Part shown: positions 14,505-31,440 of the stretch, piece after piece
How the letters are laid out: each line of letters begins with the position of its first letter
Position numbering within the stretch: the stretch's first letter is position 1
The notes under the pieces: model-generated
Seen by the model: the letters and a program-made list of their open reading frames with translations, nothing else
What the model was told of the DNA's origin: nothing
The model's database searches: none
Assembly (NCBI GenBank): GCA_016929065.1
Contig: JAFGJO010000042.1
Location: 96,300-160,299, forward strand
DNA length: 64,000 nt
Direction: 5' to 3'
From: Spirochaetales bacterium
Lineage (GTDB): Bacteria; Spirochaetota; Spirochaetia; SZUA-6; RPPD01
Position numbers and translations under genes: made by a program

Positions 14505-14513
14505 ATTTCCCCC

Positions 14514-15248: not shown

Positions 15249-16015
15249 TCGTCTTCCCCCAAATACACACGGATGACATCGGGATTTTTCTGTATTTCAC
15301 GCGGCAGGCCTTCGGCAAGGACCGCTCCTTCATTGAGCACAAGTATTTCATCGGAAATATCCATCACCATGGACATGTCATGCTCCACCAACAGGATGGT
15401 AATACCAAGGTCGCGGATCCTGCAGATGAGCTGTGACAGTTCTTTTGTCTCATAAATGTTCAATCCTGCAGCAGGCTCGTCCAAAAGCAGAATATCCGGT
15501 TCAAGAGCGCATGCCCGGGCGCATTCCACCTTCCGTTTTATCCCGAATGCAAGGTTTTGTGCTGTTTCGTCTATAAATTCTCCAAGGCTGAAAAATGTTA
15601 AGAGCTCGCGGGATTTTTTTTTACAGTCAGATTCCTCCCGCAGCGTCCAGGGCAGCCTGAGCGCACTCGCAATAAACCCTGCTTTTGTTTTTATATGCCG
15701 GCCCGCCATGATATTTTCAAGAACTGTCATGTGTTCAAACAGACGCGTTGTCTGATACGTCCTGGCCATTCCCAGCGCGGCAATTGCATATGGTTTTTTT
15801 GATGAGATCAATTCGCCCTTGAACATGACCCTCCCGGAATCCGCAGGGATAGCCCCGCTTAACAGATTAAAAAGCGTGGTTTTTCCCGCACCGTTCGGCC
15901 CGATAATCGATTTTATTTTACCTTTTTGAACCGAAAACCATACATCCCGAACCGCATGCAGGCCGCCGAAATGCTTGTTCAGCCCCTGTGCTTCAAGAAT
16001 TACAGCATCGCTCAT
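15242..16015 (-). CDS. livG: Branched-chain amino acid ABC transporter ATP-binding protein
   Basis: Walker A 'GPNGAGKTTLFN', Walker B 'ILLLDEPAAGL'. LivG-type C-terminus. Overlaps livF and livM. Confidence 0.9.
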   Translation of the reverse strand: MSDAVILEAQGLNKHFGGLHAVRDVWFSVQKGKIKSIIGPNGAGKTTLFNLLSGAIPADSGRVMFKGELISSKKPYAIAALGMARTYQTTRLFEHMTVLENIMAGRHIKTKAGFIASALRLPWTLREESDCKKKSRELLTFFSLGEFIDETAQNLAFGIKRKVECARACALEPDILLLDEPAAGLNIYETKELSQLICRIRDLGITILLVEHDMSMVMDISDEILVLNEGAVLAEGLPREIQKNPDVIRVYLGEDEC

Positions 16016-17253
16016 TTTTCGTCATCCTTCTTTTTATTTGCAAAAACAATACCCTTTTTTTCAAGTTTGCGCTTGAGCACCATTCTTCGCGTCAGGCGTC
16101 TTGTTTTTTTTATCACCACCTCCAGGTATTCTTTGCGGAACAACCCCCGGGGCAGAAACAGCATGGTCACCACCAAAATGAGCGCAAAAAATATTTCGTC
16201 GAAGCTGCCAAAGTAGCCGCGCAGGGAAACAAAGTTCAGCCCCATGCTCATGGCAACAACCCCCCAGATCGAATCCATGCCGCCTGCAGCGACGATGGAA
16301 ACATAGCGGACTGATTTTAATACACTTGTCTCGGAGGTGCCGATGCTCCCGTTATAATGAACAAGGAATACACCCGCAATGGCAGCGAACAATGCAGAGA
16401 GCACAAACACTCCGAGCTTGTAACGCATGGCATTGATCCCAAGAGACCCCGCAGCCTGTTCATTGCCGTGGATAGCGCGAAGGGCGCGGCCCACACGCGA
16501 GGCAACAATGTGCATACTGACAATGAGGACAATAAACAGAATAATGCCCGCAATATAGTAATTCACCGTGCGGTCAGCCATCCCGCCGTTTATGGATAAA
16601 GGCCCGACAAGATGGAATGCAGGAACCCGCGAGATCCCGTCGGCCTCTCCAAATAATTTGGTGCCAAATACAATGGTTGAAATAATAATACCAAACCCAA
16701 GAGTTGCCATGGCAAGATAATGCCCTTTCAGCCGGAGGACCGGAAGGCCGATAAGACAGGCAATGCCGATTGCGGTCAAAAGCGAGATAAACAATGCCGC
16801 CGAAGGGGCATATGACAAAATGCCATTGCCGAAACCATCAGTTCCCGGCACAAACATGCCAAAAATATCTCCAAGGCCCACGAACAGCTTTACGGGGATT
16901 CCCAGAATCGCCCCGATTTTTTCGGGAATGAGCTCATACCACTCTACTGTACCGAATATTTGTGACACATTTTTAAACACCTCATCCCATGAGGAGTGAA
17001 TTATTGAAGAAAAATCATGCGTGGTGAGCATTGCCTGCATATAGGCGCCGATACTGAAAAATCCGGCATGGCCAAGAGATATCTGGCCCGCGTATCCCAT
17101 CAGCAGGCATAATCCGATGACCACGATGGTATAATAAAAAGACATTGTAATCTGCGTAAAATAAAACGCAGCACCGGTAAGGGAGATGACGAGCTGCACT
17201 GCAACAAGCGCACCCAGAAAAACGGCCGCAGGAAGATATTGCCTGATATTCAT
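16012..17253 (-). CDS. livM: Branched-chain amino acid ABC transporter permease (with a basic C-terminal tail)
   Basis: Polytopic membrane protein. 'GYAGQISLGHAGFFSIGAY' matches the LivM family. The start overlaps the livH stop. Confidence 0.85.
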   Translation of the reverse strand: MNIRQYLPAAVFLGALVAVQLVISLTGAAFYFTQITMSFYYTIVVIGLCLLMGYAGQISLGHAGFFSIGAYMQAMLTTHDFSSIIHSSWDEVFKNVSQIFGTVEWYELIPEKIGAILGIPVKLFVGLGDIFGMFVPGTDGFGNGILSYAPSAALFISLLTAIGIACLIGLPVLRLKGHYLAMATLGFGIIISTIVFGTKLFGEADGISRVPAFHLVGPLSINGGMADRTVNYYIAGIILFIVLIVSMHIVASRVGRALRAIHGNEQAAGSLGINAMRYKLGVFVLSALFAAIAGVFLVHYNGSIGTSETSVLKSVRYVSIVAAGGMDSIWGVVAMSMGLNFVSLRGYFGSFDEIFFALILVVTMLFLPRGLFRKEYLEVVIKKTRRLTRRMVLKRKLEKKGIVFANKKKDDEK

Positions 17254-18311
17254 TAAAATTCCTTCAACTGGCTTGCCTGCCGGCTGCCGAATACACCGCT
17301 CGGTTTGAAAACAAGAATAAGTAAAAGCAGCAGGATCGCCACCACATCCTTGTAGGCATTGGGGAAGATACTGACACTAAACGCCTCGAGGATGCCCAGG
17401 ATGAGTCCACCGGCGACCGCTGCGAAACTGTTGCCGAGCCCGCCAAGGATGGCAACCGAGAATCCCTTTATGGCAAGTACCGATCCCATATCATACTTTG
17501 TCTGTGAAAGCGGGGAAATGACGCTGCCTGCCAGTGCGGCAATCGCGGCTGACACGATAAAGGAAATGGTAATCATAAGCCGGACATTTATCCCGCACAA
17601 TTTTGCGGCAGTGTGGTCAAGACTGCACGCTCTCATGGCCTTGCCGTAGCGGGTGTATTTGAAAAAGACATACAAGCCGATCACCAGGAGCGCACAAATG
17701 CCCAAGACCCAGATCCGCTGGGGAGAAAAAGAGATCGAACCCAATGACAGGATGGTATTTGAATCCCCGATAAAATAGGGAAGCACATGCGCGTCCTTGT
17801 CCCAGAGATGGCTCATGATTTCGCGCGTCAAAATAGAAACTGCAATGGTGAGCACAATCAGGCTCAAGACTGTCTGTTCTTTCATATATTTTCGAAACAC
17901 TGTTTCAAGCCCGAATCCAACGGGAAGGCCGAACAGAAATGCGGCGGCAAAATCAATACCCTCCGGTAAAAAGGAGAAAATGCCGAGTGTTTTTAGAAGA
18001 AGAGCGGCAATAATGCCGATACAGACCGACCGGAACGGTGAAAAAGACCGGTTGCGGCGGATAAACACATTTTCCACTACCGCCCCGTACACCGCAGCAA
18101 CCAGTACTCCCACGCCGATGGCAATACCGATCGGTAGAATGCTGGACATCGATATTGCGACCATGGCTCCCAGGATCAAAAAGTCTCCCTGGGCGAAATT
18201 GATAATTCCGGTGGTATTGTAGATAATATTAAATCCAATAGCCACAATCGCATACTGTGCGCCGACAGTGAGTCCTATGACGAGATAATTGAAAAACAGA
18301 TCAACATTCAT
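17253..18311 (-). CDS. livH: Branched-chain amino acid ABC transporter permease
   Basis: Polytopic. 'FNIIYNTTGIINFAQGDF' matches the LivH family. The likely start is MNVDLFFNYLVIGL at 18311; the ORF extends to 18341. Confidence 0.85.
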   Translation of the reverse strand: MNVDLFFNYLVIGLTVGAQYAIVAIGFNIIYNTTGIINFAQGDFLILGAMVAISMSSILPIGIAIGVGVLVAAVYGAVVENVFIRRNRSFSPFRSVCIGIIAALLLKTLGIFSFLPEGIDFAAAFLFGLPVGFGLETVFRKYMKEQTVLSLIVLTIAVSILTREIMSHLWDKDAHVLPYFIGDSNTILSLGSISFSPQRIWVLGICALLVIGLYVFFKYTRYGKAMRACSLDHTAAKLCGINVRLMITISFIVSAAIAALAGSVISPLSQTKYDMGSVLAIKGFSVAILGGLGNSFAAVAGGLILGILEAFSVSIFPNAYKDVVAILLLLLILVFKPSGVFGSRQASQLKEF

Positions 18312-18412
18312 GCTTTTCCCTGCTTTCTTTGGCAGAATCAAAACACTTTTTGGGAATTTGCTTTTTTATCATGGCATAACCGGAATGATTTTTCAACCCT
18401 GATTTTCTTGAC

Positions 18413-18438
18413 AAAAAAGCCCCCTGTTTCCAGGGGGC
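18413..18438 (-). terminator. Intrinsic terminator after giant surface protein 1
   Basis: Minus-strand RNA GCCCCCUG-gaaa-CAGGGGGC followed by UUUUUU. Confidence 0.75.
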
Positions 18439-18462
18439 CTATACAAATTACATTCTATGCCG

Positions 18463-21400
18463 CTATAAAATCCGCGCCCGTATCCCAAAGCTGAGAGACA
18501 GGTTTGTTCCGCCTTCAACTGCCGACGAGATAAACCACAGCTCAAGCTGCGTGTAGAATCCGAAGTTGTTGAATGCGCCCCAGTTCTCAATCGTAAAATT
18601 GGCGAATTCAAACTGAACAAGAGCTGCGCCAAATATCAATCCGTCTTCGCTGAATGCTATCTCTTCACCTGAATTCGTGAAATACGAGAATGCCGCACCC
18701 ACGCCGAGGGACATGGAAAAGAATTCCCAGTCAGGGCCAAGGAACGATGCGAACGGAAGCTTGAATACATTTGCAATAAGACGAGCGCCCAGGACTAGTC
18801 CGTTCGGCCATTTTTCCGCACCGGTAAACATATCTGTGTTTGGAGTGTAGCCTGCCTCAAACTGCAGTTTTACATTCTGGTCAAAGAAGGTGAGTCCCAG
18901 ACCCAGATGAAAGAGTGTCGCACCGGTCCCCTGCAGATCAATATACATTCCCTGAATAAACTCGGGGATGGAGTATCCGCTCTTGTCGCCCTTACGCAGG
19001 TTAACCGAAATATCAGCGAGCCGGTTTTCATCGGAAGCGATTCCCACAATCCGGATCTTGTCATTAAACCGTTGATTCTCCTCGGGGCCAAGGAGGTTCA
19101 CAAACGGCGGCTTGTCGTCGTTCAGATACATTGTTTTGGTAATTACCTGTTTTTCTCCCACGGTTGCACGCATGATAATGCGGACATTGCCGTCGGGGAT
19201 ATCCTGGGTCTGGAGCCGGTAGCGCCATTGGTCGGTCCCGTTCACCTCATGAAAGCTTTTGCCGTTATTGAGGCTGATCTCGACTTTCTGCACACGGTTT
19301 TTATTGAGCGTTTTTTCATATTTCTCAAACTCTTCCTTTTGTTCGCGGTCTACCGCATCAAGGAAAAATCCTGCCTCACCTTCGAGCCATGGACGCCGCG
19401 CCACAAAATCTCCGGTATGGAAATTGTTAATTCTCACCCATCCGCCCACACGGGTATAAATGATTTTTTGTTTTCCAGATTTGATCACACTGCCGTCGGC
19501 GCTGGTCGTTGCCAGTTCCAGATCATGTTCGCCGTCTCCAAGGTCTTCGGGACCCATATCAAGGTAAAAGTACCCGTATTCGGAAATGTCCGCCTGCTTT
19601 TTCTTTGCACCATCCACCAGCAGGTCTACGGTTTTTACCGGATATTCCGACATCACCTTACCGCTGATCGTAAAGAAGCCGGCGACATTTTCGCCCTCTA
19701 CAGGAAAAACCTGTTCCATTGTGTTCACAATTGTTTTTTCTTTTATCACGATATTGCGCGTAATATAGACAATATTGTTTGCCTTGTCGCGCGCCTCGAT
19801 GCGCAGATTATACCACCCGGGTTTCAGGCTGGTGACGTCGATCTGACGGGAAAACACACCGGAAAGCGGCAGTTCCACGGGTTTTGCGAGCGCTGAACTG
19901 CCGGTCTTGAATCCCGCTCCGCCGCTGATGGGCGATACCTCAAAGGTGAGAGCTGACAATACAATGTTGTCGAACGCACGGCCGTCAAGAAGCATTTTCT
20001 CTGTATACTCCTGCCCGTCCTTCGGAAAATCAAGGGAGAGGGTCGGCGGTGTATTGTCAATATTGAGCATTGTCGCAAAGAGCCCCTCGGTTGAGGTCTT
20101 GTCGACTGCTTTCACAAGGATTCGGTGAATCCCGTCTGAAAGCAGATGTGTATTCAATGGAAATGTCCATTTCTCCGCGCCGAATCCTTTCTGGAAGCTG
20201 TTGCCATTGTCAAAACTGAAATACACTTCCTTGATTCCGTTCGCGTCGCTCGAGTTCCCTGCCAGGGTAATGGTTCCGCGCGTGGTTACCGATACTTGTG
20301 GGGATTCAAGCGTTGAAATCGGTTCTGCCTTGGAGATGAATATCTTGCGTTTGATTACATCGCCTTTAAATCCGCTGATATCCTCGGCCTGCACTTCAAT
20401 GGTATGTTCGTTGTCAGTAATTTCATCAAGCTTTACGGGAACGCGGAAACTGTTTCCACCCTCGAGTTTCTGAAACTCGCCGTTGTCAAGCCTGAAGTAT
20501 ATCGCACCCACACCGTCATCGTCGAAAACCATGCCCGAGATGACAAAGTCGTTCCTCAGAACTTCTTCTTCTTCCGGAATCTGGATTTCGGCGACCGGTT
20601 TGTCGGCCTCATAATTGATATTGAATACCGGATTGGTCACCGCATTGTTGCCTGCCATGTCCGTTACTCTGAAATAAAATTTCTCGGGAAGTTTTTTGTA
20701 TTTTGTCAAATCAAGATTGTAGGCAAGGAATCTGCCGCCCTCGATCGGTGTATATGTTTTTCCATCATCGGAAAACTCGATAGTTTTGATCCTGCCCTCA
20801 TCGGCAATATCCGCCATAACGCTGAAGATACCGTTTACCGGAACCCCTTCTTGCGGAGTAATAAGGGTAAACGCCGCGTTGGCAGTATCTTTTTTCAGCG
20901 GAATCACTTTTACAGTGCTTTTGCCGCTGTTGTCGGTTGCCTTCACAAACAGGGGAAATGTTCCGTCTGCGATCGCCTCAAGAGAAATTGTCTCGGAAAA
21001 AGTCACACCCTCTGTGCTCTTTTTTACGGTCATCGGCTTGTAGGTACCTTCCGCGTTCAGGGCATATTCAACCGCGGCGATGCCGATCTTGTCGTTTGCC
21101 GTTCCCTCGATTTTCACCGAGTTTTTGTACCATTCCTCGGCCACCGGTGTGGTTAACGTGAGTTCAGGCTCCCCTGCATCGGAAATGAACTGTAATTTTT
21201 TAACAAAGGTCTTGCCATTGGTTTTCTTCACCACAATTTCAACCGCCTGGCTTAATCCCTCGCCGGTTGCAGTAATGGTGATCTTCCGGCCGTCTGCCGA
21301 TGCCTGCAGAAATCCCGTTGCCGGTTTTATCTCGACGCTTGCAACAGTGTACCCGTTGAAAAATCCGATTAAGGGTTTTTCCGGTGCAATATATGCTTTG

Positions 21401-23862
21401 TTGTCAGCGGTTATCCTTGAATCGATAAAATACAGATCCTCGGCAGTGTTGAGCACCGTCTTGCCGGGATCATCAATTTTGTAAAAAAAATCAGAATAAT
21501 ACCCGGTCTGTTTTGTCTTGTTGGTAAACCGGACAGTAAACTCGTTTTTACCGTAGGGAAGTTCCTTGGGCAGGGCAATACTGATCGCCGCAAGCGGCTG
21601 ATTGTTGTTTCGTTTGACATCAATCCCCTTGTATTCCTTGCCGCCATTAAAGCTCACTTCTGCTCGATCGATGGTTTGCTCGACTGTTCCTTCCAGCCGC
21701 ATGGTTCCGTCGCTTGCAGCAAGCTGCACCCCGGAAAAATAGTCAACCGTCGCGGTTTTCGAAACTGCTTTAAGGATTGCTGCAGAATACACATCTGCGG
21801 AGGGTGAGTTCACTGTTGTCACACTAACCGGTTCGGAAGTTACTGTTTCCCCGCCGACGGTTTTTATACTGATCCGCACGGTTCCTTCAACGCCGGTCTG
21901 GGACGGGGTGATAATAACCCGTTTCCCCTGGGCCGATGCCGACAGAAACGGGGTATTCGGTTCAAGCGATACCGATGCGATATCCTCCCCGGAATAATAA
22001 GCGGTAAGCGGAGAATCGGATGCAATCTCTACCTGATCATTCGCATTCTTGCGTGCCAAAGCAAGCGACAGTGCTGGTTTTTCGTATATCCCGGTATAAT
22101 TGTTGACATACACAAACGTGGTAAAGGAAAAAGACCGGTCATATTTGTCTGTGGCGTTAATTGTAATGGGAACAACACCATACGGGATGTCCGGCGAAAG
22201 AGCTATTTCAAACTCGCGCCAAAACTTTTCGGTCATTGTTTTCAAGGTGATCGGTTTGGGGGCAATCCCCTCAGTCTCCCACGTCGCTTTGGCAAAACCG
22301 CCGTAATCGCGGATGAGCCCGGTGAGTTTTGCATTGCCGGCCTTGTCCACTGCTATTCCAGGATAAAAGGGAGCTGAAGATTTACCGCTCACCAGATCCT
22401 GCATGACCAGTTCTGTATTGCCGCCCGTAGAGGTAAAATCAACAGTCACCGGAAGTCCTTTTGTACCGTACATGTCTGTTGCAGTAACGGTGATTTTGTG
22501 CTTTCCCGCAGCAAGTTCGTCAAGAATGAGGGAAAATCCTTCCTTTGCCTCGACCGTTGTGCTTTCTTTTCCATCGATGGAATAGGTAATTTCTTTTGCA
22601 CCGTCCGCATCGGTAACGAATCCGTAGACAGGCAGCCTTCCAGAGATCACTGCATCTGCAAACGGCGACAACAGCTGAACCACCGGCTTGTCAGCTTCTC
22701 GGTCGATTTTTACCGGAACCCGCAGTACTTCCTTGTTGCCGGTGCTGTCTTCCAGGGTAAACGTAACTGTTTCCTCGGCAGATGCCAGCCCCGAAAAATC
22801 AAAGTTCTGTTTCCAGTAAATGTTTCCGGGAACGAGTTCAATCTCCCCTGTTTTATCTTTCCATTCCCAGGTCAGACCCTTTAACCCGATTTCGTCCCGC
22901 GCCGTCCCCACAACCGCAACCTGCGAAAGGTTTTTCGCATCGGGAAGCGGAGAGACAATTTCCAAAGCCGGTTTCTTGTTGTCGACAAAGAACAGAAACG
23001 CAGCATAGCCCACAGAACCGGTATTGTCCGTACTTTTAAACCAGAACACCTGCGGTCCGTCCTCGAGCCGGTTCGTGTCGATATCAAGCTTGAAAACATA
23101 TTGACTTTCTTCCTGTTTGTATTCCATGCCCAGCTGCTTGTAGGTTTCCCCGCGGTCTTCACTGTAAAAAAGCGAGACAATCCCGTTTAAATCCCGGACA
23201 TTTGCCTCCAGTTTTGCATTGCCGTGCAGGAGCACGCCGCTTTGGGCATTGGTAAACTCAAACAGCGGTTTTGCCGTATCGATCTGAAACTTGCGGGAGA
23301 CTTCATTACCCACAGCACCGTTTATATCAATACCGCGTACGGTGATCGTGTGTACCCCGTCGGTATAGCCTTCTGTTTTAAAATTGTACGACCAGAAATC
23401 CTTTCCCTGTGCGGGAGCGTATTCTCCCTCATCGATTTTTACTTCCACCTTGGCAACCGCGTCGTCGTCCGCGCACACCCCCACAATGTTGAGGCTTGAG
23501 CCGCCGACACGCATCATGTTCACCGGGTTGGTAATATCTACCACCGGCAAATCCGAATCCGGATCAATTAAAATATTGACCGGGCCTTCAAAATAGACAT
23601 TGCCTGCCTTGTCAGTACCTTTTATAATGATATTATATGTTCCCTTTTCAAGGCCGGATACATCAAAGGTATAGTCCCAGTTTTCAAGGCCGTTTGCCTT
23701 TTTGTAGGAATTAAGAAAAGGCTCAGGAGTGGGTTTTGGCGTTGCAACCACAGGAGTTTCTTCCCCGGCCGAAACAGGAGTTTCTTCCTGGGCAAAGACA
23801 ACCATCCCGGTTGTCCCCAAAAAGAGTATGAACATCAACGCAAACAGTCTCATTTTAAACAT
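18463..23862 (-). CDS. Giant secreted surface protein 1 (about 1800 aa). Signal peptide, more than 12 tandem Ig-like beta-sandwich modules, and a C-terminal amphipathic beta-strand (putative outer-membrane barrel) region
   Basis: Signal peptide 'MRLFALMFILFLGTTGMVVFA/QEE'. Module motif [LIV]xGxAxDxxGhxxhxhxxDxGxxY recurs, for example 'IVGVCADDDAVAKVEVKID', 'VSGTARDEIGLKGLTWEW', 'VYGFVTDADGAKEITYSIDGK', 'IEGTANDKIGIAAVEYAL', 'ISGMVFDDDGVGAIYFRLDNG', 'LAGNSSDANGIKEVYFSFDNG', 'IVGIASDENRLADISVNL'. The last 170 aa have alternating hydrophobic strands ending in '...LSLSFGIRARIL'. The ORF could start at 23910. Confidence 0.6.
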   Translation of the reverse strand: MFKMRLFALMFILFLGTTGMVVFAQEETPVSAGEETPVVATPKPTPEPFLNSYKKANGLENWDYTFDVSGLEKGTYNIIIKGTDKAGNVYFEGPVNILIDPDSDLPVVDITNPVNMMRVGGSSLNIVGVCADDDAVAKVEVKIDEGEYAPAQGKDFWSYNFKTEGYTDGVHTITVRGIDINGAVGNEVSRKFQIDTAKPLFEFTNAQSGVLLHGNAKLEANVRDLNGIVSLFYSEDRGETYKQLGMEYKQEESQYVFKLDIDTNRLEDGPQVFWFKSTDNTGSVGYAAFLFFVDNKKPALEIVSPLPDAKNLSQVAVVGTARDEIGLKGLTWEWKDKTGEIELVPGNIYWKQNFDFSGLASAEETVTFTLEDSTGNKEVLRVPVKIDREADKPVVQLLSPFADAVISGRLPVYGFVTDADGAKEITYSIDGKESTTVEAKEGFSLILDELAAGKHKITVTATDMYGTKGLPVTVDFTSTGGNTELVMQDLVSGKSSAPFYPGIAVDKAGNAKLTGLIRDYGGFAKATWETEGIAPKPITLKTMTEKFWREFEIALSPDIPYGVVPITINATDKYDRSFSFTTFVYVNNYTGIYEKPALSLALARKNANDQVEIASDSPLTAYYSGEDIASVSLEPNTPFLSASAQGKRVIITPSQTGVEGTVRISIKTVGGETVTSEPVSVTTVNSPSADVYSAAILKAVSKTATVDYFSGVQLAASDGTMRLEGTVEQTIDRAEVSFNGGKEYKGIDVKRNNNQPLAAISIALPKELPYGKNEFTVRFTNKTKQTGYYSDFFYKIDDPGKTVLNTAEDLYFIDSRITADNKAYIAPEKPLIGFFNGYTVASVEIKPATGFLQASADGRKITITATGEGLSQAVEIVVKKTNGKTFVKKLQFISDAGEPELTLTTPVAEEWYKNSVKIEGTANDKIGIAAVEYALNAEGTYKPMTVKKSTEGVTFSETISLEAIADGTFPLFVKATDNSGKSTVKVIPLKKDTANAAFTLITPQEGVPVNGIFSVMADIADEGRIKTIEFSDDGKTYTPIEGGRFLAYNLDLTKYKKLPEKFYFRVTDMAGNNAVTNPVFNINYEADKPVAEIQIPEEEEVLRNDFVISGMVFDDDGVGAIYFRLDNGEFQKLEGGNSFRVPVKLDEITDNEHTIEVQAEDISGFKGDVIKRKIFISKAEPISTLESPQVSVTTRGTITLAGNSSDANGIKEVYFSFDNGNSFQKGFGAEKWTFPLNTHLLSDGIHRILVKAVDKTSTEGLFATMLNIDNTPPTLSLDFPKDGQEYTEKMLLDGRAFDNIVLSALTFEVSPISGGAGFKTGSSALAKPVELPLSGVFSRQIDVTSLKPGWYNLRIEARDKANNIVYITRNIVIKEKTIVNTMEQVFPVEGENVAGFFTISGKVMSEYPVKTVDLLVDGAKKKQADISEYGYFYLDMGPEDLGDGEHDLELATTSADGSVIKSGKQKIIYTRVGGWVRINNFHTGDFVARRPWLEGEAGFFLDAVDREQKEEFEKYEKTLNKNRVQKVEISLNNGKSFHEVNGTDQWRYRLQTQDIPDGNVRIIMRATVGEKQVITKTMYLNDDKPPFVNLLGPEENQRFNDKIRIVGIASDENRLADISVNLRKGDKSGYSIPEFIQGMYIDLQGTGATLFHLGLGLTFFDQNVKLQFEAGYTPNTDMFTGAEKWPNGLVLGARLIANVFKLPFASFLGPDWEFFSMSLGVGAAFSYFTNSGEEIAFSEDGLIFGAALVQFEFANFTIENWGAFNNFGFYTQLELWFISSAVEGGTNLSLSFGIRARIL

Positions 23863-23923
23863 CGTTTTTCCTCCTTGATTCACCGTTGGCCGTAAGCTCC
23901 GGTGTTTCACACCAAAACCATAG

Positions 23924-23973
23924 TTTGCCGTTTTCTCTCCGTGTTCTGTGCAGAACGGCCATAAAACGGCAAA
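23924..23973. promoter_or_regulatory. Inverted repeat TTTGCCGTTTT-N28-AAAACGGCAAA upstream of giant protein 1. Same AAACGGCAA half-site as at gdhA and livK
   Basis: tagTTTGCCGTTTTctctccgtgttctgtgcagaacggccatAAAACGGCAAAg. Confidence 0.4.
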
Positions 23974-24002
23974 GAAAAAGCTCTCTCCCCTCAGGGAGAG
24001 AG
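23971..24002 (-). terminator. Intrinsic terminator after giant surface protein 2
   Basis: Minus-strand RNA CUCUCUCCC-ugag-GGGAGAGAG followed by CUUUUUCUUU. It starts 13 nt after the stop at 24015. Confidence 0.75.
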
Positions 24003-24014
24003 TATCAATTTGTA

Positions 24015-27000
24015 TTATTCTTCGGGCTTGAGCTGGACGATATCAAACGCATCACCCTTGTATCCAACCGACACTGTCCAATCCACCGAACCCTTTGCAT
24101 ACTCAATACTGGTCCGGTTTTCTGAAATAGGAGTGGACAGAGGTGCATTAATATATTCCCAGCTTGAACGGGTTGTATCCCAATAAGCTACCTTGAGTCC
24201 ATTAAAGGTTCCAATCATTGAACTGTTCAGGTATGAAATATACGGAGTTGTCCCGTTCAGGGTAATGTCCGCCCAGGCACCCACAGCTCCTTCGCTGTCA
24301 ATCACTGTGCTGGCCGCAAACACGTAATTGTCATTGGAAAAGTCCGGGCCGCTCGGATCAATATCAGGCGCGGTAATATATACCAGATCGCCGGTCGAGA
24401 TCCGATAACAGGCAAGATACAGTCTTCCAGTAGTATCAAAATCTATAGTGACATGCTGGCCGATATAGAATCTGTTGGGATCACTTGTCCCGACAAAAAC
24501 AGTCTGGCGGTACCAGTCTGACGGCGATGCCGGCGCGGTGCTTGTCGCCCGTGCAAGTTTTATTGTCTGTGCTGCGATGTCATAGTAAGCAATTACCGGA
24601 TATCCCTGTTCATCGACATCAATCGTCACATATGAACCTGCCGAGGTACTTCTCGTTGCCCCCTGCGAAACAAGATTGCTCGTTGCTGTAATGATTGTAT
24701 AACTGGTATAAGTAGTATCAATGGTCGTATCAAAATCCACACGTCCAGTGCCGCTGGTAAATGCAGTAATGAGTGCTGTCCCGTAATTTCCCAAATTATT
24801 ATGAAGCTGAATTGTCTGACCGGCAGCAATCATGGTGTTCCCTATAAGTGCGGTATCGGTAACCCGGGTATTTGCCCTTGTGCCTACACCGGTTAAATGG
24901 ATCACGTCGTCACCATCAGACCCGCCGTCAATATTTATCCAGTTCATCTCCCCGGTTGACGTACTGCCATTCAGCGCATATCCGTATTTTACGGCATTGG
25001 TGTTGAGATCGTAATAGGCAATATGAATGTTATTCCCGGTTCGTACAACCTTCGGCCTCTGGAACTGCAAAAGCATGGTATCGTGATACAGCATCTCGAA
25101 CCGGTAAAAATAGTTCCAGGGATAAGCGCCACCGCGCTGAACCTGCTGCGGAGCGCTCGTATTGTAGACACTCACCGCTCCTGCCGAGTCGATATCCGGC
25201 GACCACCCCGATCCGCCGTAGTAATTTCCAAGGTAAACAACAGAAATGTTATCCGAACTGTCAAGATGAATATCACTGTATTCAGCGGGGTCATACATCT
25301 GGAATATCGGCGTTGCCGATGCTGTGGTCCCATAGAACACGGACGCTGCTGTTGTGTAGTCGGTCCATGATCCATACAGGGTTCCGTCCGAGGCGATGCT
25401 CATTGCCGGGTATTGAGCATTTGTACTTGAATCGAATGAAAGCCCGGTTCTCCAGACTGACAAATATCGGTCGTCATTCCACAAAGTCTCGTCGATGCCG
25501 CTTCCGTCATCTTCCTTGTTGTACACAAGCAGATCGCTATTCACTGTATTGACGGCTTCGATATTATTTACCATAACCCGGAGCCACCCTGAATGAGTTA
25601 CTGCGTTCAAATTTGTCAACGTCAGCTGGGTAAACGTCCCATTTGCCGTCACATCCGCATTTGCAATCTGGTCATATTCCAGGGTTCCTGTTGCGCCGTC
25701 GCCGATTTCACGGTCCCAGACGCGGACCCAGGAATTGGTTCCGTATGTTCCTGTTTTCGCCAGATTGTACCCATTGATTGCCAGCCCGGTTTCACCTGTC
25801 TGGACCGAGTATTTCCCATATTTGGAACGGGTTGTCGCTTCCGCACCGAGCGAACGCAGTATCCCCGAAATATACGGAACGACATCGTGATCACGGCTTT
25901 CGAAACTGTTGTTCGGGGTAAAGTCAATCGCACGCACCAAAACTGTTATATTGTCGCCGGTCCGGTTGGTGACATTCGCGGTATTCCAGACATATGTCCA
26001 GTCAAAGTCATGCCCGCCGGATTCCGTCAAGGTGACATTGCTGATCGTCAGGTTGCCGAAAGTCCCGCCGGTATACGTCTGCGGCCAGGTTGCCAGTGCA
26101 ACCTCGGTACCGTCGCCGGAACCCAGATCAAAGTTGTCAATCGCCATATTGAAGTACCGGATTCTCTGGTTGTCATGCATATGCCCTTTCAGCGTAATCG
26201 TTCCGCTGACATCCGGATCGGTCCCGTCATAAAGGCTGTCTCCGTCATGTTCGATATGACCGCCGGTGACAGGATCGGATGTCCGGTCGGACTGTGAAAG
26301 GTCGTCCAGCGTCACCTCCGGTGCATCGCCGTCATCATTATCGATCACCACATCAATGGTTTCATCGACATAAATACCATCCGCGTCGGTCACCCGTATC
26401 AGGAAGGTCGTCGGACCTTCGCTGTATCCGCTAATGTCGATGTCGCCTGCAGCAGCCGAAAGCACCAGGGCACCTGCAGCATCCGGATGATACACACGGT
26501 AATCGGATAATGTATCATTGTCTGTTGCGGTGACGCTGATATAAAGCAGATTTCGGCCGGTAATTCCATAGGCGTCATCATAGACGAACCGTTCGTTGGC
26601 ATCATCGGTTGAATCATCAAAATCAAGATCCGTTCCCACAGTAAGCCCGGTAATCTGGGGTTTGTTGTTTTTGATGAATCCCGTCTGTTCATTATGTCGG
26701 CCATTGCCTCCCTTGTCGAAGGTGACATAATGGATGGTTAACGGACCATCGGGAATATTTGATGAATCAAACTGTGCCCACCAGTTGTAATCAGAACCGG
26801 AAAGCGTGAGGGATTCATCATACCCGTCTCCATCTCCATTCCCGGAGCCGTCATTTCCCAGCTCGGTTGTTTTATCGATGGTGATCACATAATCCGTTTT
26901 TTCACCTGGATCCATATAAGGCACATCACCGTTTCCATCGTCAAAATCATTTAAGGTTGCCGTTGTGGTGCCCGCGCCATTCGGACTGTACAACGTGTAG

Positions 27001-29678
27001 GGGCCTGTACCGCGGGTAAAGTATACTTCTATTTTGTCTATTCCGCTTACCACGCCGGTATCCCAGGCCATGCCCTGCAGCCGGGAATTGGTATCGCTGC
27101 CGAAAATGTCATTGTACCCTGTGCCGGTATATGCGGCAGTCGGAAACTGATTGTCGACATTCAGGGTCAAATAACTGATCGTCTGATAATAGGCATTGTC
27201 AATCACCTTCAGCCGCAATTGAAACAACCCGCTCACGGGAATATACACTGTGCTGTCTATCGAAATATCCAGAGTGTAATGGTCAACATCAACATAGGTC
27301 ACCTTGGAAGCATCTCCGGTTATATCAATATAATCCACTCCGCCATTGTAGCTTATCCATATACTGTCCACTTCTTCATCATCATACACATCGCCGGTAA
27401 AACTGAATGTCCCGCTGACATAATCATATGCCTGAATTGGTACGCCAACAACTGCCGGCGGCACTGGTTCATGCAGTAAATTTTCGATACGGGGGATGGT
27501 GTCATCGCAGTGGAAGGTAATCTGCTGATAGTTGCCGGTCACCGGTATTGCATTTATATCAACTGCTCTTACCCGGATCGTTATATTCCCGTTCAACGCA
27601 GGGATAGTATCGGCGCGTGCGTAGAGTTCGCCGTAACTGTTGATCATCTCTGTCCAGACGGTTGTTCCGGTGAGTGTATACCATTGCGTCTCGTCCTCGA
27701 ACCGGTCGCTTGTGTCTGTATCAAGTGTTTTTGATACGCCATCACCGATATCGATCTGGTCTGAAAAATCTCCATCGCCGTTGATATCGATTTGAATTTC
27801 CACATGATCCACCGCATCATCATCAAAAGCGGTTCCGGAGATGAGCACCGGGCCGCCGATGTTCTGCCCGTTGGACGGGGCAATAATGGTCACCTGGGGT
27901 TTGTCCAGATCATTGTCAATATAGACATAGTAGGTAGTAAGGGTTGTTACATTGTTTGCCACATCGGTTGCGCGTGCCTGGACAGTGAGTTTCCAGACAT
28001 CACTGGCCGGGGGCGTCTCTACCGCGTGGGTTGCATTCGCATAGCTTGTACTGTCAACCGTATATTCCCAGTTGTACGTTCCTGAAAGCGGAATAAACGG
28101 GTCATTGGCTCCGATTTTAAGTTCAACCAGCGTAATTTGTGTATTGTCGGAAGAGGTTCCCTTGAAAATCACCTGGCCGTTTACCGTTGTCGACTGCGCC
28201 GGGTTGACGAATGATATCGACGGATTCGTTCGGTCGATAATTACCTGAAGGTTATATGTCGTCTGTTTGGTACCGCCGCCTCCTTCTGTGGCGCGGACCT
28301 TGATCAGCATTGATCCGTCCGGTGGTGAGATGACATCATAGCTCCAGGAGGTTGTCCCGGTAGCAGGATAGTAATCCACCCCGTTATTCGTGCTCACTTC
28401 AACAAGGGAAATGCCCTGTGCGTCGCTTGCTGTGCCGGATACAGTGAAATTCCCGTTTAAATACTGGCCCTGCGTGGGGGTGTTTACTACAAGAGTAGGT
28501 ACACCGGAGTCAACAGTAAATGCATACGGCGCGGTCGTCCGCTGATTGGCGCCGATATCAGAAGCCCGTACCTCAATGAGGTATTCGCCGTCGGCCATGT
28601 GCCCGGTGGGCGGCTGCCCGTCCATGATATATGACCAGCTGACAGATGGCCCTGCCGGGTTATTGGTGGAAGTCCAGGGAATGACCTCGACGGGCGTTGC
28701 CTCGTTTGTAGTGATGCGAATTTCTACAGAATTCGCAGCAACACCATCCGAGTCAATCGCTTTTCCGGAAAGCCGGCTGGTCGCAGTAAAAATATTGTTT
28801 GCCGCGCCGGTTCCATCCGGGTTATACACTTCGATAGTCGGTTTATTCTGGTCCTGGTCAAAATACAGGCCGATCATGGCAGTTCCGTCATTGGCGGCAA
28901 GATATGTTTCAACTTCAGCATCAGCAAGGTCACCATTTAAAACGCGGTAGATATCATCGATAACAATATTTTCATATCCATTTGCCACAAGAATATTGTA
29001 ATAATGATAAAAACGTGTGCTGACATTGCCCGCCTTGTCAGTTGCAGTGATCCGAAATTTAAGGGTGCCGGTTGTTGCAACAAGCGCGGCACTGTCAAAA
29101 ACACATGACCAGGTTGATGCACCGCTAACAGACGGTGTTGCAAGCAGTACAGTCTCGGCATCATTATAGATTTCAACAACGACACTGTTTACACCAAAGA
29201 GGTCAGCTGCTTCACCTCGAAGAACAAATGCACTGCCGTAATAGGTAGCGCCGGGAATTGAAGGAGTAGATAACAATACCAGCGGCCCGGTATTGTCAAC
29301 GTACACAAGAAGATTTCTATTGGTCATTTTGCCGGATGAGTCGGTAATTAAAAAAATAAGATTGTATTCGCCGTCAGGTATACTGGTGGTGTCCCAGTCA
29401 TAGCTCCATGTTTCTGCATCCTGATCAATGGTTGCATCGACATAGGTCGCTCCGGCGTCAAATGAAACCTGTATCCTGGCAGCCTGCATATCCTCTTCGA
29501 AATTCCCTGAAAGGACAACGAGGCCGTGAGTATAGGCGCCATTCGGGTGGCTTGAGACAAAAACAAGAGGTGCATCAATATCCACCTTGTTTCCCAATCC
29601 GGGACTCAAAAGATCACATGAAATAACAGAAAAAAACAGCAGAGTAACTGCTGCTGCAGACAAGATAACTCTCTTCAT
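24015..29678 (-). CDS. Giant surface lipoprotein 2 (about 1890 aa). Lipoprotein signal, tandem Ig-like modules, acidic linker, and a C-terminal Tyr/Thr-rich beta-propeller-like region
   Basis: Lipobox 'LLFFSVISC'. Modules 'LSGNFEEDMQAARIQVSFDAGATY', 'LRGEAADLFGVNSVVVEI', 'LSGKAIDSDGVAANSVEIRI', 'VSGTASDAQGISLVEVSTNNGVDY', 'ISGTAFDDDAVDHVEIQIDINGDG'. The C-terminal 700 aa are rich in YY, WxY and TxT blade-like repeats. The ORF extends to 29708. Confidence 0.6.
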   Translation of the reverse strand: MKRVILSAAAVTLLFFSVISCDLLSPGLGNKVDIDAPLVFVSSHPNGAYTHGLVVLSGNFEEDMQAARIQVSFDAGATYVDATIDQDAETWSYDWDTTSIPDGEYNLIFLITDSSGKMTNRNLLVYVDNTGPLVLLSTPSIPGATYYGSAFVLRGEAADLFGVNSVVVEIYNDAETVLLATPSVSGASTWSCVFDSAALVATTGTLKFRITATDKAGNVSTRFYHYYNILVANGYENIVIDDIYRVLNGDLADAEVETYLAANDGTAMIGLYFDQDQNKPTIEVYNPDGTGAANNIFTATSRLSGKAIDSDGVAANSVEIRITTNEATPVEVIPWTSTNNPAGPSVSWSYIMDGQPPTGHMADGEYLIEVRASDIGANQRTTAPYAFTVDSGVPTLVVNTPTQGQYLNGNFTVSGTASDAQGISLVEVSTNNGVDYYPATGTTSWSYDVISPPDGSMLIKVRATEGGGGTKQTTYNLQVIIDRTNPSISFVNPAQSTTVNGQVIFKGTSSDNTQITLVELKIGANDPFIPLSGTYNWEYTVDSTSYANATHAVETPPASDVWKLTVQARATDVANNVTTLTTYYVYIDNDLDKPQVTIIAPSNGQNIGGPVLISGTAFDDDAVDHVEIQIDINGDGDFSDQIDIGDGVSKTLDTDTSDRFEDETQWYTLTGTTVWTEMINSYGELYARADTIPALNGNITIRVRAVDINAIPVTGNYQQITFHCDDTIPRIENLLHEPVPPAVVGVPIQAYDYVSGTFSFTGDVYDDEEVDSIWISYNGGVDYIDITGDASKVTYVDVDHYTLDISIDSTVYIPVSGLFQLRLKVIDNAYYQTISYLTLNVDNQFPTAAYTGTGYNDIFGSDTNSRLQGMAWDTGVVSGIDKIEVYFTRGTGPYTLYSPNGAGTTTATLNDFDDGNGDVPYMDPGEKTDYVITIDKTTELGNDGSGNGDGDGYDESLTLSGSDYNWWAQFDSSNIPDGPLTIHYVTFDKGGNGRHNEQTGFIKNNKPQITGLTVGTDLDFDDSTDDANERFVYDDAYGITGRNLLYISVTATDNDTLSDYRVYHPDAAGALVLSAAAGDIDISGYSEGPTTFLIRVTDADGIYVDETIDVVIDNDDGDAPEVTLDDLSQSDRTSDPVTGGHIEHDGDSLYDGTDPDVSGTITLKGHMHDNQRIRYFNMAIDNFDLGSGDGTEVALATWPQTYTGGTFGNLTISNVTLTESGGHDFDWTYVWNTANVTNRTGDNITVLVRAIDFTPNNSFESRDHDVVPYISGILRSLGAEATTRSKYGKYSVQTGETGLAINGYNLAKTGTYGTNSWVRVWDREIGDGATGTLEYDQIANADVTANGTFTQLTLTNLNAVTHSGWLRVMVNNIEAVNTVNSDLLVYNKEDDGSGIDETLWNDDRYLSVWRTGLSFDSSTNAQYPAMSIASDGTLYGSWTDYTTAASVFYGTTASATPIFQMYDPAEYSDIHLDSSDNISVVYLGNYYGGSGWSPDIDSAGAVSVYNTSAPQQVQRGGAYPWNYFYRFEMLYHDTMLLQFQRPKVVRTGNNIHIAYYDLNTNAVKYGYALNGSTSTGEMNWINIDGGSDGDDVIHLTGVGTRANTRVTDTALIGNTMIAAGQTIQLHNNLGNYGTALITAFTSGTGRVDFDTTIDTTYTSYTIITATSNLVSQGATRSTSAGSYVTIDVDEQGYPVIAYYDIAAQTIKLARATSTAPASPSDWYRQTVFVGTSDPNRFYIGQHVTIDFDTTGRLYLACYRISTGDLVYITAPDIDPSGPDFSNDNYVFAASTVIDSEGAVGAWADITLNGTTPYISYLNSSMIGTFNGLKVAYWDTTRSSWEYINAPLSTPISENRTSIEYAKGSVDWTVSVGYKGDAFDIVQLKPEE

Positions 29679-29796
29679 CGAGGGCCCCCTCAAAAGATCA
29701 AATTTCACCTATTTTATTATCGTCGGTTTTTTCCGCGACGATACAAATTTCCTTCCGTGATAGACATTTTATTATTATTTGACTTTTTAGAGTTCC

Positions 29797-29825
29797 CCTC
29801 AATAATAATATAGCACCTTTGCGCG
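29797..29825 (-). promoter_or_regulatory. Candidate sigma70 promoter for giant protein 2 (TTGAAA, 17 bp spacer, TATATT)
   Basis: On the minus strand: TTGAAAtacccgcgcaaaggtgcTATATT. The -10 maps to 29797-29802 and the -35 to 29820-29825. Confidence 0.4.
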
Positions 29826-29951
29826 GGTATTTCAATAGATTTTCGCTGTTATTTTTTTGTATAAAAAGTTCTCCCAAAGACCGTGGAGGAAAAAAAGAGC
29901 ACTTTTCGCTTCCAGACAGTTGAGGATGAAACAAGTGTTCTATAGATTATG

Positions 29952-29978
29952 AACGTACTTACTAAAAGAAGGGGAAGC
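29952..29978 (-). terminator. Second intrinsic terminator or attenuator, about 200 nt downstream of the livK terminator
   Basis: Minus-strand RNA GGGGAAG-gug-CUUCCCC followed by UUCUUUU. An alternative 12 bp stem uses AGGTGCTTCCCC at 29991-30002. Confidence 0.6.
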
Positions 29979-30176
29979 ACCTTCCCCCTTTAAAAAAATC
30001 AGGTGCTTCCCCATAAAAAAACAAGTTATTATTTATCCGGCAGGCTGAACCTGCCTTCCTGTACAGTAAACAACTCAAAGACGTTTATGTCAAGCCCGTT
30101 TTGATTTTGTGTCAAAAATGACAAACGGTCAGAAAGGATAGGACCAGAACAATTGTCACATCGTAATCATTACCTC

Positions 30177-30214
30177 AAAAAAAAATGGAGTATCGGTGTA
30201 CCCCGTACTCCATA
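30177..30214 (-). terminator. Intrinsic terminator immediately after livK
   Basis: Minus-strand RNA AUGGAGUA-13 nt loop-UACUCCAU followed by nine U. It starts 18 nt after the stop at 30232. Confidence 0.75.
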
Positions 30215-30231
30215 CAATATGCTTTTATAAT

Positions 30232-31398
30232 CTATTTTTTATACAGATCAAATTTTCCATCTTTAACTACATACATTTCAAATGCGTCTTTATCAAGTCC
30301 ATTATGATCAGTCGCGGAAAAATTGAACACTCCGCCGGTACCGGGAAAATTGCTGACCTTTTCAATGGCACTGCGGACCGCTTCGGTCTCAGTACTGCCC
30401 GCAATTTCGATGGCTTTTTTCAGGATCATCAGCGCATCATAGGCATGTCCACCGAATGTACTGACATCTTCCTTGTACAAACCCTGATACTGTGTGATGT
30501 AATCAGAAATTACCTTTTTCTGCGGATTGGAATCGGGAAGAACTCCCACTGCAAGCATACGGCCGGCCGGGAATATAACACCCTCGGCTGCGGCGCCTGC
30601 TGTTTCCACATATTTGATGTTTCCAAAACCATGACTCTGGTATAACGGCTGTTTCATACCAAGCTGGCGTATATTGGTAATGACGATTGACTGTGCCGGT
30701 TCAATAGACCAGTTCACCACCGCATCCACATTCGCACCCTTGACCTTTGTCATGACATCGGTAAGATCTGTTGCCTTGGCGTCATACACTTCTGCGATGA
30801 CAATTTCAAGGCCGTATTCACCGGCGTATTTTTCCAGCTGGGCTTTTCCGCCTTGTCCAAAACCGGAGTTCGATACCACCACGCCGATCCGCTTCAAACC
30901 ACGCGCTTTGATGTCTTCAAATATTTTCATTGCTGCAAAGCTGTCCTTCTGCGGGGTCTTGAATACATACGGGGTAACAGGGACGACGATGTCTTCCGCT
31001 GCAGCACAGGAGATCAGAATTGTCTTGTTTTCATTACAGACATCCTTTACCTGCAGGCTCTCCCCGCTGGTGGTCGGTCCAATAATTGCCAGAACCTTGT
31101 CTTCCTCGATCAGCTGCCTGGCAAATGAAACGGCATTCTCGGCTTTCCCCTGTGTGTCTTTCACAACAAGTTCAACCTGATGTCCGTTGATTCCGCCGTT
31201 TTTGTTGATTTCCTCAACAAGCATTTCCAGTGTTTTGTTCTCCGGGTCACCCAAAAAACTCGCCGGACCGGTAACCGCCAGCAGCGCACCGATTTTAATC
31301 GTCCCGCCGTCGGCACTGCCGCCGCACGATACCATTGCAAAAAGACCTCCCGCTATTGCGAGCAGGGCAAGAATAAAAATAGCTCCTTTATTCCGCAT
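30232..31398 (-). CDS. livK: Branched-chain amino acid ABC transporter substrate-binding lipoprotein
   Basis: Lipobox 'LFAMVSCGG'. 'IKIGALLAVTGPASFLGDPENKTLEMLVEEINKNGGINGHQVELVVKDTQGK' is a Leu/Ile/Val-binding-protein family motif. RBS AAGGAGGG. Confidence 0.9.
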   Translation of the reverse strand: MRNKGAIFILALLAIAGGLFAMVSCGGSADGGTIKIGALLAVTGPASFLGDPENKTLEMLVEEINKNGGINGHQVELVVKDTQGKAENAVSFARQLIEEDKVLAIIGPTTSGESLQVKDVCNENKTILISCAAAEDIVVPVTPYVFKTPQKDSFAAMKIFEDIKARGLKRIGVVVSNSGFGQGGKAQLEKYAGEYGLEIVIAEVYDAKATDLTDVMTKVKGANVDAVVNWSIEPAQSIVITNIRQLGMKQPLYQSHGFGNIKYVETAGAAAEGVIFPAGRMLAVGVLPDSNPQKKVISDYITQYQGLYKEDVSTFGGHAYDALMILKKAIEIAGSTETEAVRSAIEKVSNFPGTGGVFNFSATDHNGLDKDAFEMYVVKDGKFDLYKK

Positions 31399-31428: not shown

Positions 31429-31440
31429 TACAATTATTTT

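Follow-up and report, generated by a model that had tools for sequence, protein, structure and literature searches.

A conserved pair of giant Ig-repeat proteins of Spirochaetia, candidate envelope fibres, relocated into a liv operon of a Spirochaetales bacterium

Two adjacent genes encoding giant Ig-repeat proteins, here called giant A and giant B, form a native module that is vertically conserved in Spirochaetia and that has moved into the liv operon in the lineage of a Spirochaetales bacterium (assembly GCA_016929065.1), of which a window of 64,000 nucleotides was analysed. The pair is conserved across Spirochaetia and uncharacterised, and what ties it to amino-acid transport is its location and not its function. 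We give about an even chance to the overall reading that this relocated native module encodes very long, membrane-anchored Ig fibres of the cell envelope, acting as a scaffold or tether and not as classical secreted adhesins.

Position and conservation of the gene pair

The giants, their flanking genes and the signals between them all lie on the minus strand, where the gene order is livK, giant A, giant B and then livHMGF-paaK. The upstream flank of the relocated pair is a gene for a livK-type substrate-binding protein (30232..31398, Liv/Urt substrate-binding protein family match), and the downstream flank is livH-livM-livG-livF-paaK (13200..18341), in which NCBIfam matches correspond to LivH (17253-18341), LivM (16012-17253), LivG (15242-16015), LivF (14514-15248) and PaaK (13200-14504). 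It should be noted that all of these names, including livK, are family-level, every match falling below the NCBIfam equivalog cut-offs. Since livK and livH are 11.9 kb apart, this is not a contiguous livKHMGF operon, and the ORF map together with the family matches bears out a preliminary description of the locus, according to which the operon is split by two giant genes. Giant A (24015..29678, MBN1524711.1, JW904_09520) is a predicted lipoprotein of 1887 aa and giant B (18463..23862, MBN1524710.1, JW904_09515) a predicted Sec-exported protein of 1799 aa, and both ORFs have the lengths of the deposited proteins.

None of the 79 related liv loci listed (of 80 retrieved) carries the giants, and in almost all listed loci with enough downstream flank livK is followed directly by livHMGF. 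Orthologous A and B genes are found elsewhere, adjacent to each other in each context examined across Spirochaetia and never within a liv locus. For example, A-type lipoprotein genes adjoin B-type genes in Teretinema zuelzerae (L084), a Treponema MAG (L085) and Spirochaetia 38H-sp (L090), as well as at L081, L082/L083, L086-L088, L089 and L091, in several orders and orientations, and the closest A orthologue adjoins Rrf2, PfkB and nitroreductase genes. Because the pairs always lie outside liv loci and no listed liv locus contains them, the two genes are a native module that has moved into the operon here, and their placement between livK and livH is specific to this lineage, as had been proposed.

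That the genes are an adhesin or S-layer cassette which entered the liv operon by horizontal transfer from another lineage had also been suggested and is highly improbable. Such an origin would fit an insert that is bounded by terminator-like hairpins and that interrupts the liv operon only here among the examined liv loci. However, GC content is 0.489 and 0.493 in the two giants and about 0.49 in the flanking DNA. In GC3 and in codon-usage distance (0.056-0.069) the giants do not exceed the range spanned by neighbouring genes, lying inside or under it, so that in composition they are indistinguishable from the rest of the window. There are no mobile-element genes, no boundary repeats were detected in a repeat search of 17800-31500, and the same pair recurs in related Spirochaetales MAGs as orthologues with 40-50% identity. 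Neither SLH nor other S-layer families were found in either giant with Pfam and NCBIfam. The caveat that these domain searches might place the giants in a known S-layer family was not realised, both proteins being deposited as unannotated 'hypothetical proteins'.

Architecture of the giants and their relatives

Ig modules were counted with an iterated HMM seeded with one Big_7 module, which recovered 15 modules in giant B and 9 in giant A at a period of about 93-95 aa (per-domain E-values 1e-5 to 1e-27). Both are tandem Big_7 proteins (PF17957; E = 7e-60 and 200 bits for B, 3e-19 and 69.8 bits for A, against a Pfam gathering cut-off of 24.1 bits), and the Pfam repeat matches in the giants comprise Big_7, Big_13 and Big_3_3, not Big_2. 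No DNA-level tandem repeats were found in 17800-31500, and the Ig modules are old and diverged.

The N-terminus of giant A, MKRVILSAAAVTLLFFSVIS-C, reads as a signal peptide with lipobox (residues 1-21, ending ...FSVIS-C, 29616..29678). This cysteine is kept in six A-type partners (those at L081, L082, L084, L085, L090 and L091), in which it is followed by the conserved motif x(2-4)-[GS]LG-x-x-[VI]D-x-x-x-P. The stalk of Big_7-type modules, delimited with Pfam and the iterated HMM, spans residues 36-805 (27264..29573) and gives way to a family-specific middle region (residues 806-1250, 25929..27263) without Pfam matches except two partial Ig modules, which reach residue 1101; full Big_7-type modules are absent from approximately the last 790-1000 residues. 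The C-terminal head (residues 1251-1887, 24018..25928) consists of a small beta-sandwich and a 7-bladed beta-propeller that resembles PLL/BP39L lectins and integrin alpha heads.

Giant B begins with a signal peptide (residues 1-24, 23791..23862), its N-terminus MFKMRLFALMFILFLGTTGMVVFA-QEE reading as a signal peptidase I site (...VVFA followed by QEE), and the N-termini of homologues are comparable. There is a conserved N-terminal tip module (residues about 43-120, 23503..23736), and the chain of 15 Big_7-type modules (residues 50-1640, 18943..23715, Pfam and iterated HMM) also contains two inserts that are not of the Big_7 type, at residues of about 575-710 and 783-898. The C-terminal domain (residues 1636-1799, 18466..18957) is modelled as a closed, 8-stranded, antiparallel transmembrane beta-barrel. 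Hydrophobic/polar alternation is clear in 5 of the 8 strands, consistent with a hydrophobic, lipid-facing side, and the last residue of B homologues is F in 102 of 120 and L in 15 of 120, as in a C-terminal aromatic beta-signal. The model is a monomer prediction, and a multimeric or non-canonical arrangement may apply. The propeller-like end on one giant and the membrane barrel on the other had both been predicted correctly. Pfam searches at E-values up to 5 gave nothing meaningful for the middle region and head of A or the inserts of B, PDB sequence searches with both giants returned no match, and no peptidoglycan-binding domain was detected in either giant with Pfam or NCBIfam.

The B-type family is discrete. 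Barrel and tip are common to all 120 B homologues listed, and the barrel domain is matched by only 226 of 1.84 billion cluster representatives, shorter matches looking like fragments. Identity between giant B and its clade orthologues is 60-73% in the tip, 52-56% in the barrel and 46-47% over the whole protein, and chain length varies among homologues. This pattern fits a spacer between two functional ends as well as a conserved endogenous partner.

The barrel shares its eight strands with the OmpA N-domain, OprF-N, NspA, OmpW and PagL, but does not belong with them at the sequence level, and no Pfam or NCBIfam barrel family (OmpA_membrane, OMP_b-brl and similar) matches it. Whereas the soluble peptidoglycan-binding domain of OmpA is C-terminal, the soluble part of giant B is N-terminal, and in every full-length match the barrel is the C-terminal end of an Ig-repeat protein of 1,300-2,600 aa. 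The Tpr/MOSP proteins of Treponema have the layout predicted for B, with a periplasmic N-terminal soluble part and a C-terminal outer-membrane barrel; B differs in its giant Ig chain and 8-stranded barrel and has no MOSP_N or MOSP_C match in Pfam. Type V and inverse autotransporters (intimin/invasin) also have an outer-membrane barrel fused to a long passenger that is partly Ig-like, but their barrels have 12 strands and a passenger-carrying lumen. Giant B has no linker helix preceding its barrel and no Autotransporter (PF03797) or IAT_beta match in Pfam, which separates it from type Va autotransporters, and it is unlike the inverse type, in which an N-terminal 12-stranded barrel precedes a C-terminal Ig passenger, in having a C-terminal barrel of 8 strands. 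A split barrel of the Hop type for surface display was considered and rejected, there being no amphipathic strand after the B signal peptide and all 8 strands being already present in the C-terminal barrel.

Among spirochaetal proteins, leptospiral LigA and LigB carry Big_2 repeats where the giants carry Big_7, and Lp49 is only about 10% identical to the giants; we know of no barrel-anchored partner for LigA/LigB or Lp49. TDE0362 (PMC11833123), the T-Mac protein of Treponema denticola, has 647 aa with Big_1, Big_2 and Mac-1 protease domains and is not related to the giants. A search of the literature found no paper on the giant-pair family. The bacterial alpha-2-macroglobulin YfhM/ECAM shows that a lipoprotein of the periplasm can exceed 1,600 aa and comprise many beta-sandwich domains; no sequence or domain relationship to the giants was detected, and it is an analogy for feasibility only.

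Transcription signals around the pair

Terminator-like hairpins are present at all three places where terminators had been expected, after livK, A and B. A scan for hairpins and T-runs placed the livK hairpin, with a run of 9 T, at 30187..30204, and that after giant B at 18417..18440 (10 pairs, 7 GC, with a T-run). Between A and B lies a hairpin with a weak T-run (23981..24002), possibly leaky as a terminator, followed by an inverted repeat with two AACGGCAAA copies that folds as a long hairpin (23924..23973). A strong promoter-like site, TTGAAA-17-TATATT with TG, precedes giant A (29807..29835; 10/12 matches, a consensus match only), and none was found in the stretch that leads from the A terminator to giant B. 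The earlier picture of two insulated genes with a promoter each is not supported: a promoter of B is not confirmed, and in the related contexts L082, L086 and L089 an A-B gap of 18-22 bp indicates that A and B form an operon. The relocated pair would have brought or acquired transcription signals between livK and livHMGF. Rfam, run in E-value mode over 9500-34000, returned nothing within the giant-pair segment. Its two weak matches both lie at the convergent gltD/gdhA terminator.

A motif shared with gdhA and livK had been described upstream of one giant, and this is indeed the case for B and not for A. AACGGCAAR occurs in 13 copies against 2.0 expected, and five of these are in non-coding DNA, two preceding gdhA, two preceding giant B and one preceding livK. 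This short motif points weakly to nutritional control of the pair, in which A and B would be tied to nitrogen or amino-acid metabolism. An operator common to the pair, gdhA and livK, to which an NrpR-like protein may bind, would then co-regulate them, envelope fibres being made according to nutrient status. A gene of the NrpR family (11449-12582) does adjoin gdhA and gltBD. Nevertheless, we regard such control as improbable. The two copies that precede B make up the stem of an RNA-type hairpin and could have a structural role, and A, the first gene of the pair, has no upstream copy. Orthologous pairs occupy unrelated contexts and have no copy in their listed A-B intergenic regions or in those upstream of A. 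The motif was rejected as a conserved liv operator, its heptamer being found upstream of livK in 4 of the 79 loci of other genomes, which is chance level.

Envelope scaffold or surface adhesin

Under the envelope reading, an N-terminal lipid anchor would hold giant A, with a stalk of about nine Big_7 modules and family-specific domains, at whose end the beta-sandwich and propeller would be a likely head for binding a ligand or partner. Giant B would be exported by Sec, and its 8-stranded, OmpA/OprF-like barrel with the terminal Phe/Leu beta-signal would enter the outer membrane, presumably via BAM. By the standard topology of outer-membrane proteins, an even-stranded barrel has both termini on the periplasmic side, and one of eight strands has no lumen for a passenger, so that the Ig chain of B, approximately 1,600 residues long, and its conserved tip most likely hang on the inner face of the outer membrane. 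This orientation favours an envelope scaffold or tether, in which A and B would act jointly, over a classical surface adhesin. Several points speak against a scaffold. Tandem Big_7, Big_13 and Big_3_3 repeats are typical of cell-surface proteins, a stalk tipped with a propeller like those of lectins or integrins is adhesin-like, and spirochaetal lipoproteins can be surface-exposed. By our own estimate, a chain of at least 15 Ig-like domains would probably exceed the width of a periplasm several-fold.

The giants may instead be surface-exposed fibrillar adhesins or a coat, with A as a surface lipoprotein, B exported through an unspecified translocation route, and propeller and tip binding cells, polysaccharides or minerals. 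We consider this a tentative but serious possibility. Like the fibrillar adhesins surveyed by Monzon and Bateman (PMC8286594), the giants are very long single polypeptides with a tandem Ig-like stalk, a distinct domain farthest from the membrane anchor and a cell anchor, and thus have the fibrillar-adhesin layout. Neither a lipobox, as in A, nor a family-specific 8-stranded barrel, as in B, is among the anchors in the part of that survey considered here, which also reports that many fibrillar adhesins have no recognised anchor, a point in favour of surface exposure. The likeness of the A propeller to lectins and integrin heads points the same way, as do a weak match to the Ca_tandemer adhesin repeat and differences between genomes in copy number and length. 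Moreover, the N-terminal module scores 46.9 bits against a cut-off of 40 for the NCBIfam OmpL47-type domain, and OmpL47 is reported, in the part of the source considered here, to be surface-exposed in Leptospira (PMC2698987). Against these points, a passenger of 1,600 residues cannot pass through an 8-stranded C-terminal barrel, which makes surface exposure of B topologically unlikely on the modelled fold. The giants yielded no match to a 12-stranded autotransporter domain, no split barrel of the Hop type and neither a T1SS nor a T9SS signal, and in the contexts examined the pair has no conserved translocator gene as a neighbour. Furthermore, the tip is unusually conserved over free-living, gut and oral lineages, in which it differs from fast-evolving adhesins.

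A more specific form of the preferred scaffold reading, unlikely as it stands, is that A and B are a spirochaete-specific elastic tether or scaffold of the periplasm, in which titin-like Ig chains from the B barrel and the lipid anchor of A keep the loosely attached outer membrane joined to the cell cylinder, or hold the periplasmic flagella in place, and still permit the large relative movements of motility. If true, it would add a new way of tethering the outer membrane to those of Lpp, Pal, OmpA and OmpM. To our knowledge, it is poorly understood how the fluid outer membrane of spirochaetes is kept around a periplasm with rotating flagella, and we know of no well-defined equivalent of the classical tethers in these organisms. 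The pair offers a concrete candidate for a system of envelope fibres, and it is carried by cultivable bacteria, namely Teretinema zuelzerae, Thiospirochaeta perfilievii and oral Treponema. As an instance of genome rearrangement, the split liv operon is of minor interest. If the giants are surface-exposed, the B barrel would be a new type of anchor for fibrillar adhesins of diderm bacteria.

Placement of the gene pair in the liv locus

The DNA derives from a Spirochaetales MAG, and every relevant gene of the locus is carried on the minus strand. In order of transcription these are a PaaK-like ligase (31926-33236), an ACT-domain protein (31498-31929), 'livK', a Liv/Urt-type substrate-binding protein (30232-31398), giant A (24015-29678; 1887 aa; MBN1524711.1, JW904_09520), giant B (18463-23862; 1799 aa; MBN1524710.1, JW904_09515), livH (17253-18341), livM (16012-17253), livG (15242-16015), livF (14514-15248) and a second PaaK (13200-14504). 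Both giants are annotated 'hypothetical protein', and the Liv names are family-level only because scores fall under the NCBIfam equivalog cut-offs. Open reading frames, family matches and hairpins agree with the coordinates, lengths and gene order of the preliminary description. Terminator-like hairpins with T-runs lie 3' of livK (30204-30187), giant A (24002-23981) and giant B (18440-18417), all on the minus strand. The suggestion that each giant has its own promoter holds for A, which has a good promoter-like site upstream (29835-29807, minus), but not for B, as no promoter-like site was found between the giant A hairpin and the giant B start.

The two gaps contain further structured elements. 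Within the 520 bp between livK and giant A, a promoter-like TTGACA-17-TTTACT is followed by about 100 nt with two hairpins (29955-30093, minus strand), the second of them a terminator rich in GC, GGGGAAGCACC...GGTGCTTCCCC with a T-run; the element (fold z-score -4.06; no match in Rfam) could be a small RNA or leader. The A-B intergenic region (23863-24014, minus; z-score -3.83) has three hairpins in succession: a terminator-like stem whose T-run is weak, a long stem formed by the two AACGGCAAA copies, and a stem directly upstream of the giant B ribosome-binding site. These could modulate read-through or translation of giant B.

The pair had been proposed to be an inserted cassette, either horizontally acquired or lineage-specific. 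The comparison took in 80 liv loci of GTDB species representatives, among them members of Spirochaetota, Nitrospirota, Desulfobacterota and Lentisphaerota; gene maps were read for 79, and the giants are absent from all 79. In almost all loci with enough downstream flank, paaK-ACT-livK-livH-livM-livG-livF-paaK is one contiguous block. In the two closest loci (L001 and L002; LivK identity 69%) livK is followed by unrelated genes, and both MAGs carry the pair elsewhere, beside Rrf2, PfkB, nitroreductase and DUF4015 genes, which is likewise the context of the closest giant A orthologue (50% identity). The absence of the giants from other liv loci and their location elsewhere in relatives thus indicate that the liv-operon position is specific to this lineage. 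The horizontal origin did not stand: the expected compositional skew against the flanks was not seen, with GC (0.489 and 0.493), GC3 (0.547 and 0.514) and codon-usage distance to other window genes (0.069 and 0.056) not exceeding the spread seen in neighbouring genes, and no mobile-element signature or boundary repeat was found in the giants and flanks. Horizontal acquisition was rejected on these grounds, and a native operon relocated into the liv operon is the best description. The order of the liv block is kept across MAGs of Spirochaetota, Nitrospirota, Desulfobacterota, Lentisphaerota and Planctomycetota (L003-L080; e.g., L004, 7975-15892), often near indolepyruvate ferredoxin oxidoreductase genes.

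Architecture and conservation of the giants

Both giants contain matches to the Pfam Ig-like family Big_7, overlapped by Big_13 and Big_3_3. An HMM iterated from one module detects 15 modules in giant B (residues 50-1640) and 9 in giant A (residues 36-1101, with seven good copies within 36-805), with a period of about 93-95 aa. Modules of A are only about 22-26% identical to those of B, and a repeat search of the region found no DNA-level repetition, so the repeats are ancient. Roughly the last 790-1000 residues of giant A are not module-built, are family-specific and have no match in Pfam.

Predicted structures bore out both earlier guesses about the end domains, a barrel and a propeller; searches against PDB sequences found no relative of either giant. 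The last 290 residues of giant B, modelled from an alignment of 30 homologues (mean pLDDT 84.8; >90 across most of the last 165 residues), form eight long strands, with clear hydrophobic/polar alternation in five of the eight. The final residue is Phe in 102/120 homologues and Leu in 15/120 and, judged from sequence, is a classical outer-membrane-protein beta-signal. Residues 1251-1887 of giant A, modelled with 23 homologues (pLDDT 85.5, pTM 0.87), fold into a small beta-sandwich and, after it, a seven-bladed propeller. Directly N-terminal to the first barrel strand, all B homologues carry a nearly invariant R-x-G-D-K-x-x-Y-x-V-P-x-F-I-Q-G-[LM]-Y (positions 102-131 of the 290-residue alignment A1; residues about 1611-1640; window about 18943-19032), a region of only moderate model confidence that could be a plug, hinge or binding site.

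The search with giant B returned >130 proteins of 1,200-2,550 aa, with named homologues in Treponema, Teretinema zuelzerae, Thiospirochaeta perfilievii and Spirochaetales/Spirochaetaceae MAGs. The barrel and the conserved N-terminal module (tip) are common to all 120 homologues listed. When the barrel by itself was searched exhaustively with HMMER, only 226 of 1.84 billion cluster representatives matched; all full-length matches have it as the extreme C-terminus of a 1,300-2,600-aa protein, and shorter matches look like fragments. Identity is 60-73% in the tip, 52-56% in the barrel and 46-47% over the whole protein, and the homologues vary in length, which suggests a spacer between two functional ends. 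The giant A family is smaller and more divergent, and includes 3,000-3,300-aa versions.

The upstream motif as a candidate regulatory site

The window has 13 copies of AACGGCAAR where 2.0 would be expected. The promoter region of gdhA contains copies, including the palindrome CGGCAATTTTGCCG (11395-11408); others lie upstream of livK, at 31419, and of giant B, at 23924 and 23965, in agreement with the motif previously noted as shared by gdhA, livK and one giant. An NrpR-family regulator gene (NRD1_2 and HTH_12 domains; 11449-12582) adjoins gdhA (9855-11201) and gltBD (3841-9806). The NrpR family is best known from methanogens, and AACGGCAAR/CGGCAATTTTGCCG at gdhA may be the operator of this NrpR-like regulator. 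The case for nutritional control of the pair is weakened because the two copies near giant B form both arms of a stable hairpin, the region upstream of giant A has no copy, the heptamer occurs upstream of livK in other genomes at chance level (4/79), and the intergenic regions read in orthologous pairs, between A and B or upstream of A, showed no copy. Such control is no more than a lead. Between the nrpR-like gene and paaK, an apparent short ORF on the plus strand (12770-13190; MSTEQSPVQKRKTLPPSHILVVDDEPILLDM...) appears, on a by-eye reading, to encode a product resembling a response-regulator receiver.

Coupling of A and B and their proposed role in the envelope

A gene for a giant predicted lipoprotein adjoins the B-type gene in every context read, and A and B are genetically coupled across Spirochaetia. 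The order is A then B in a Spirochaetales MAG (JW969; L081) and in related Spirochaetales MAGs and metagenome contigs (L082/L083, L086-L088, L089); the junctions read, in L082, L086 and L089, have a gap of 18-22 bp. B is followed by a lipoprotein partner of 4994 aa in Teretinema zuelzerae (L084; partner 15197-25184), of 5439 aa in a Treponema MAG (L085; 15279-25262) and of at least 3781 aa in L091 (14776-24671); in Spirochaetia 38H-sp (L090) A (3260 aa) and B (1602 aa) are convergent. All these partners have a signal peptide with terminal Cys, then x(2-4)-[GS]LG-x-x-[VI]D-x-x-x-P, like giant A. The partners in L084, L085 and L091 are among the largest genes in their genomes. L085 also encodes a second B-type paralogue (2192-9860; 1981 aa), with parA and parB lying between it and the B-plus-lipoprotein pair. 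Upstream of the pair in L081, in divergent orientation, is a further gene (1-3506) for a 3776-aa protein that matches Tricorn-like and Big_13 models only faintly.

Giant A thus combines a predicted lipobox, an Ig stalk and a propeller head. Giant B, predicted to be exported by Sec, consists of the conserved tip, the Ig chain and, at its C-terminus, the 8-stranded barrel with its beta-signal. Even-stranded outer-membrane barrels have both termini in the periplasm, and those with 8 strands lack a lumen that could take a passenger. From these established topology rules we infer that the B chain would be suspended from the outer membrane on its inner face; the N-terminal halves of Treponema Tpr/MOSP reportedly lie likewise on its periplasmic side. 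The main rival is that the pair forms a surface fibrillar adhesin or coat. Such Ig repeats are usually found at the surface, the head of A is lectin- and integrin-like, and the layout of stalk, tip and anchor matches fibrillar adhesins as described in PMC8286594. This reading is possible, if rather doubtful. Domain searches and the B model revealed neither a 12-stranded autotransporter domain nor a Hop-type split barrel. T1SS and T9SS signals were likewise not found, and in the contexts read no translocator gene is a conserved neighbour of the pair. The pair is kept across free-living, gut and oral spirochaetes, with its tip conserved. Together with the topology, these observations favour an envelope scaffold or tether, a statement which, taken whole, we regard as evenly poised.

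The pair is a real, conserved, uncharacterised spirochaetal module and a new combination of known parts, chiefly a family-specific 8-stranded barrel anchoring a giant Ig chain. If true, the reading of A and B as a periplasmic tether would be of high interest.
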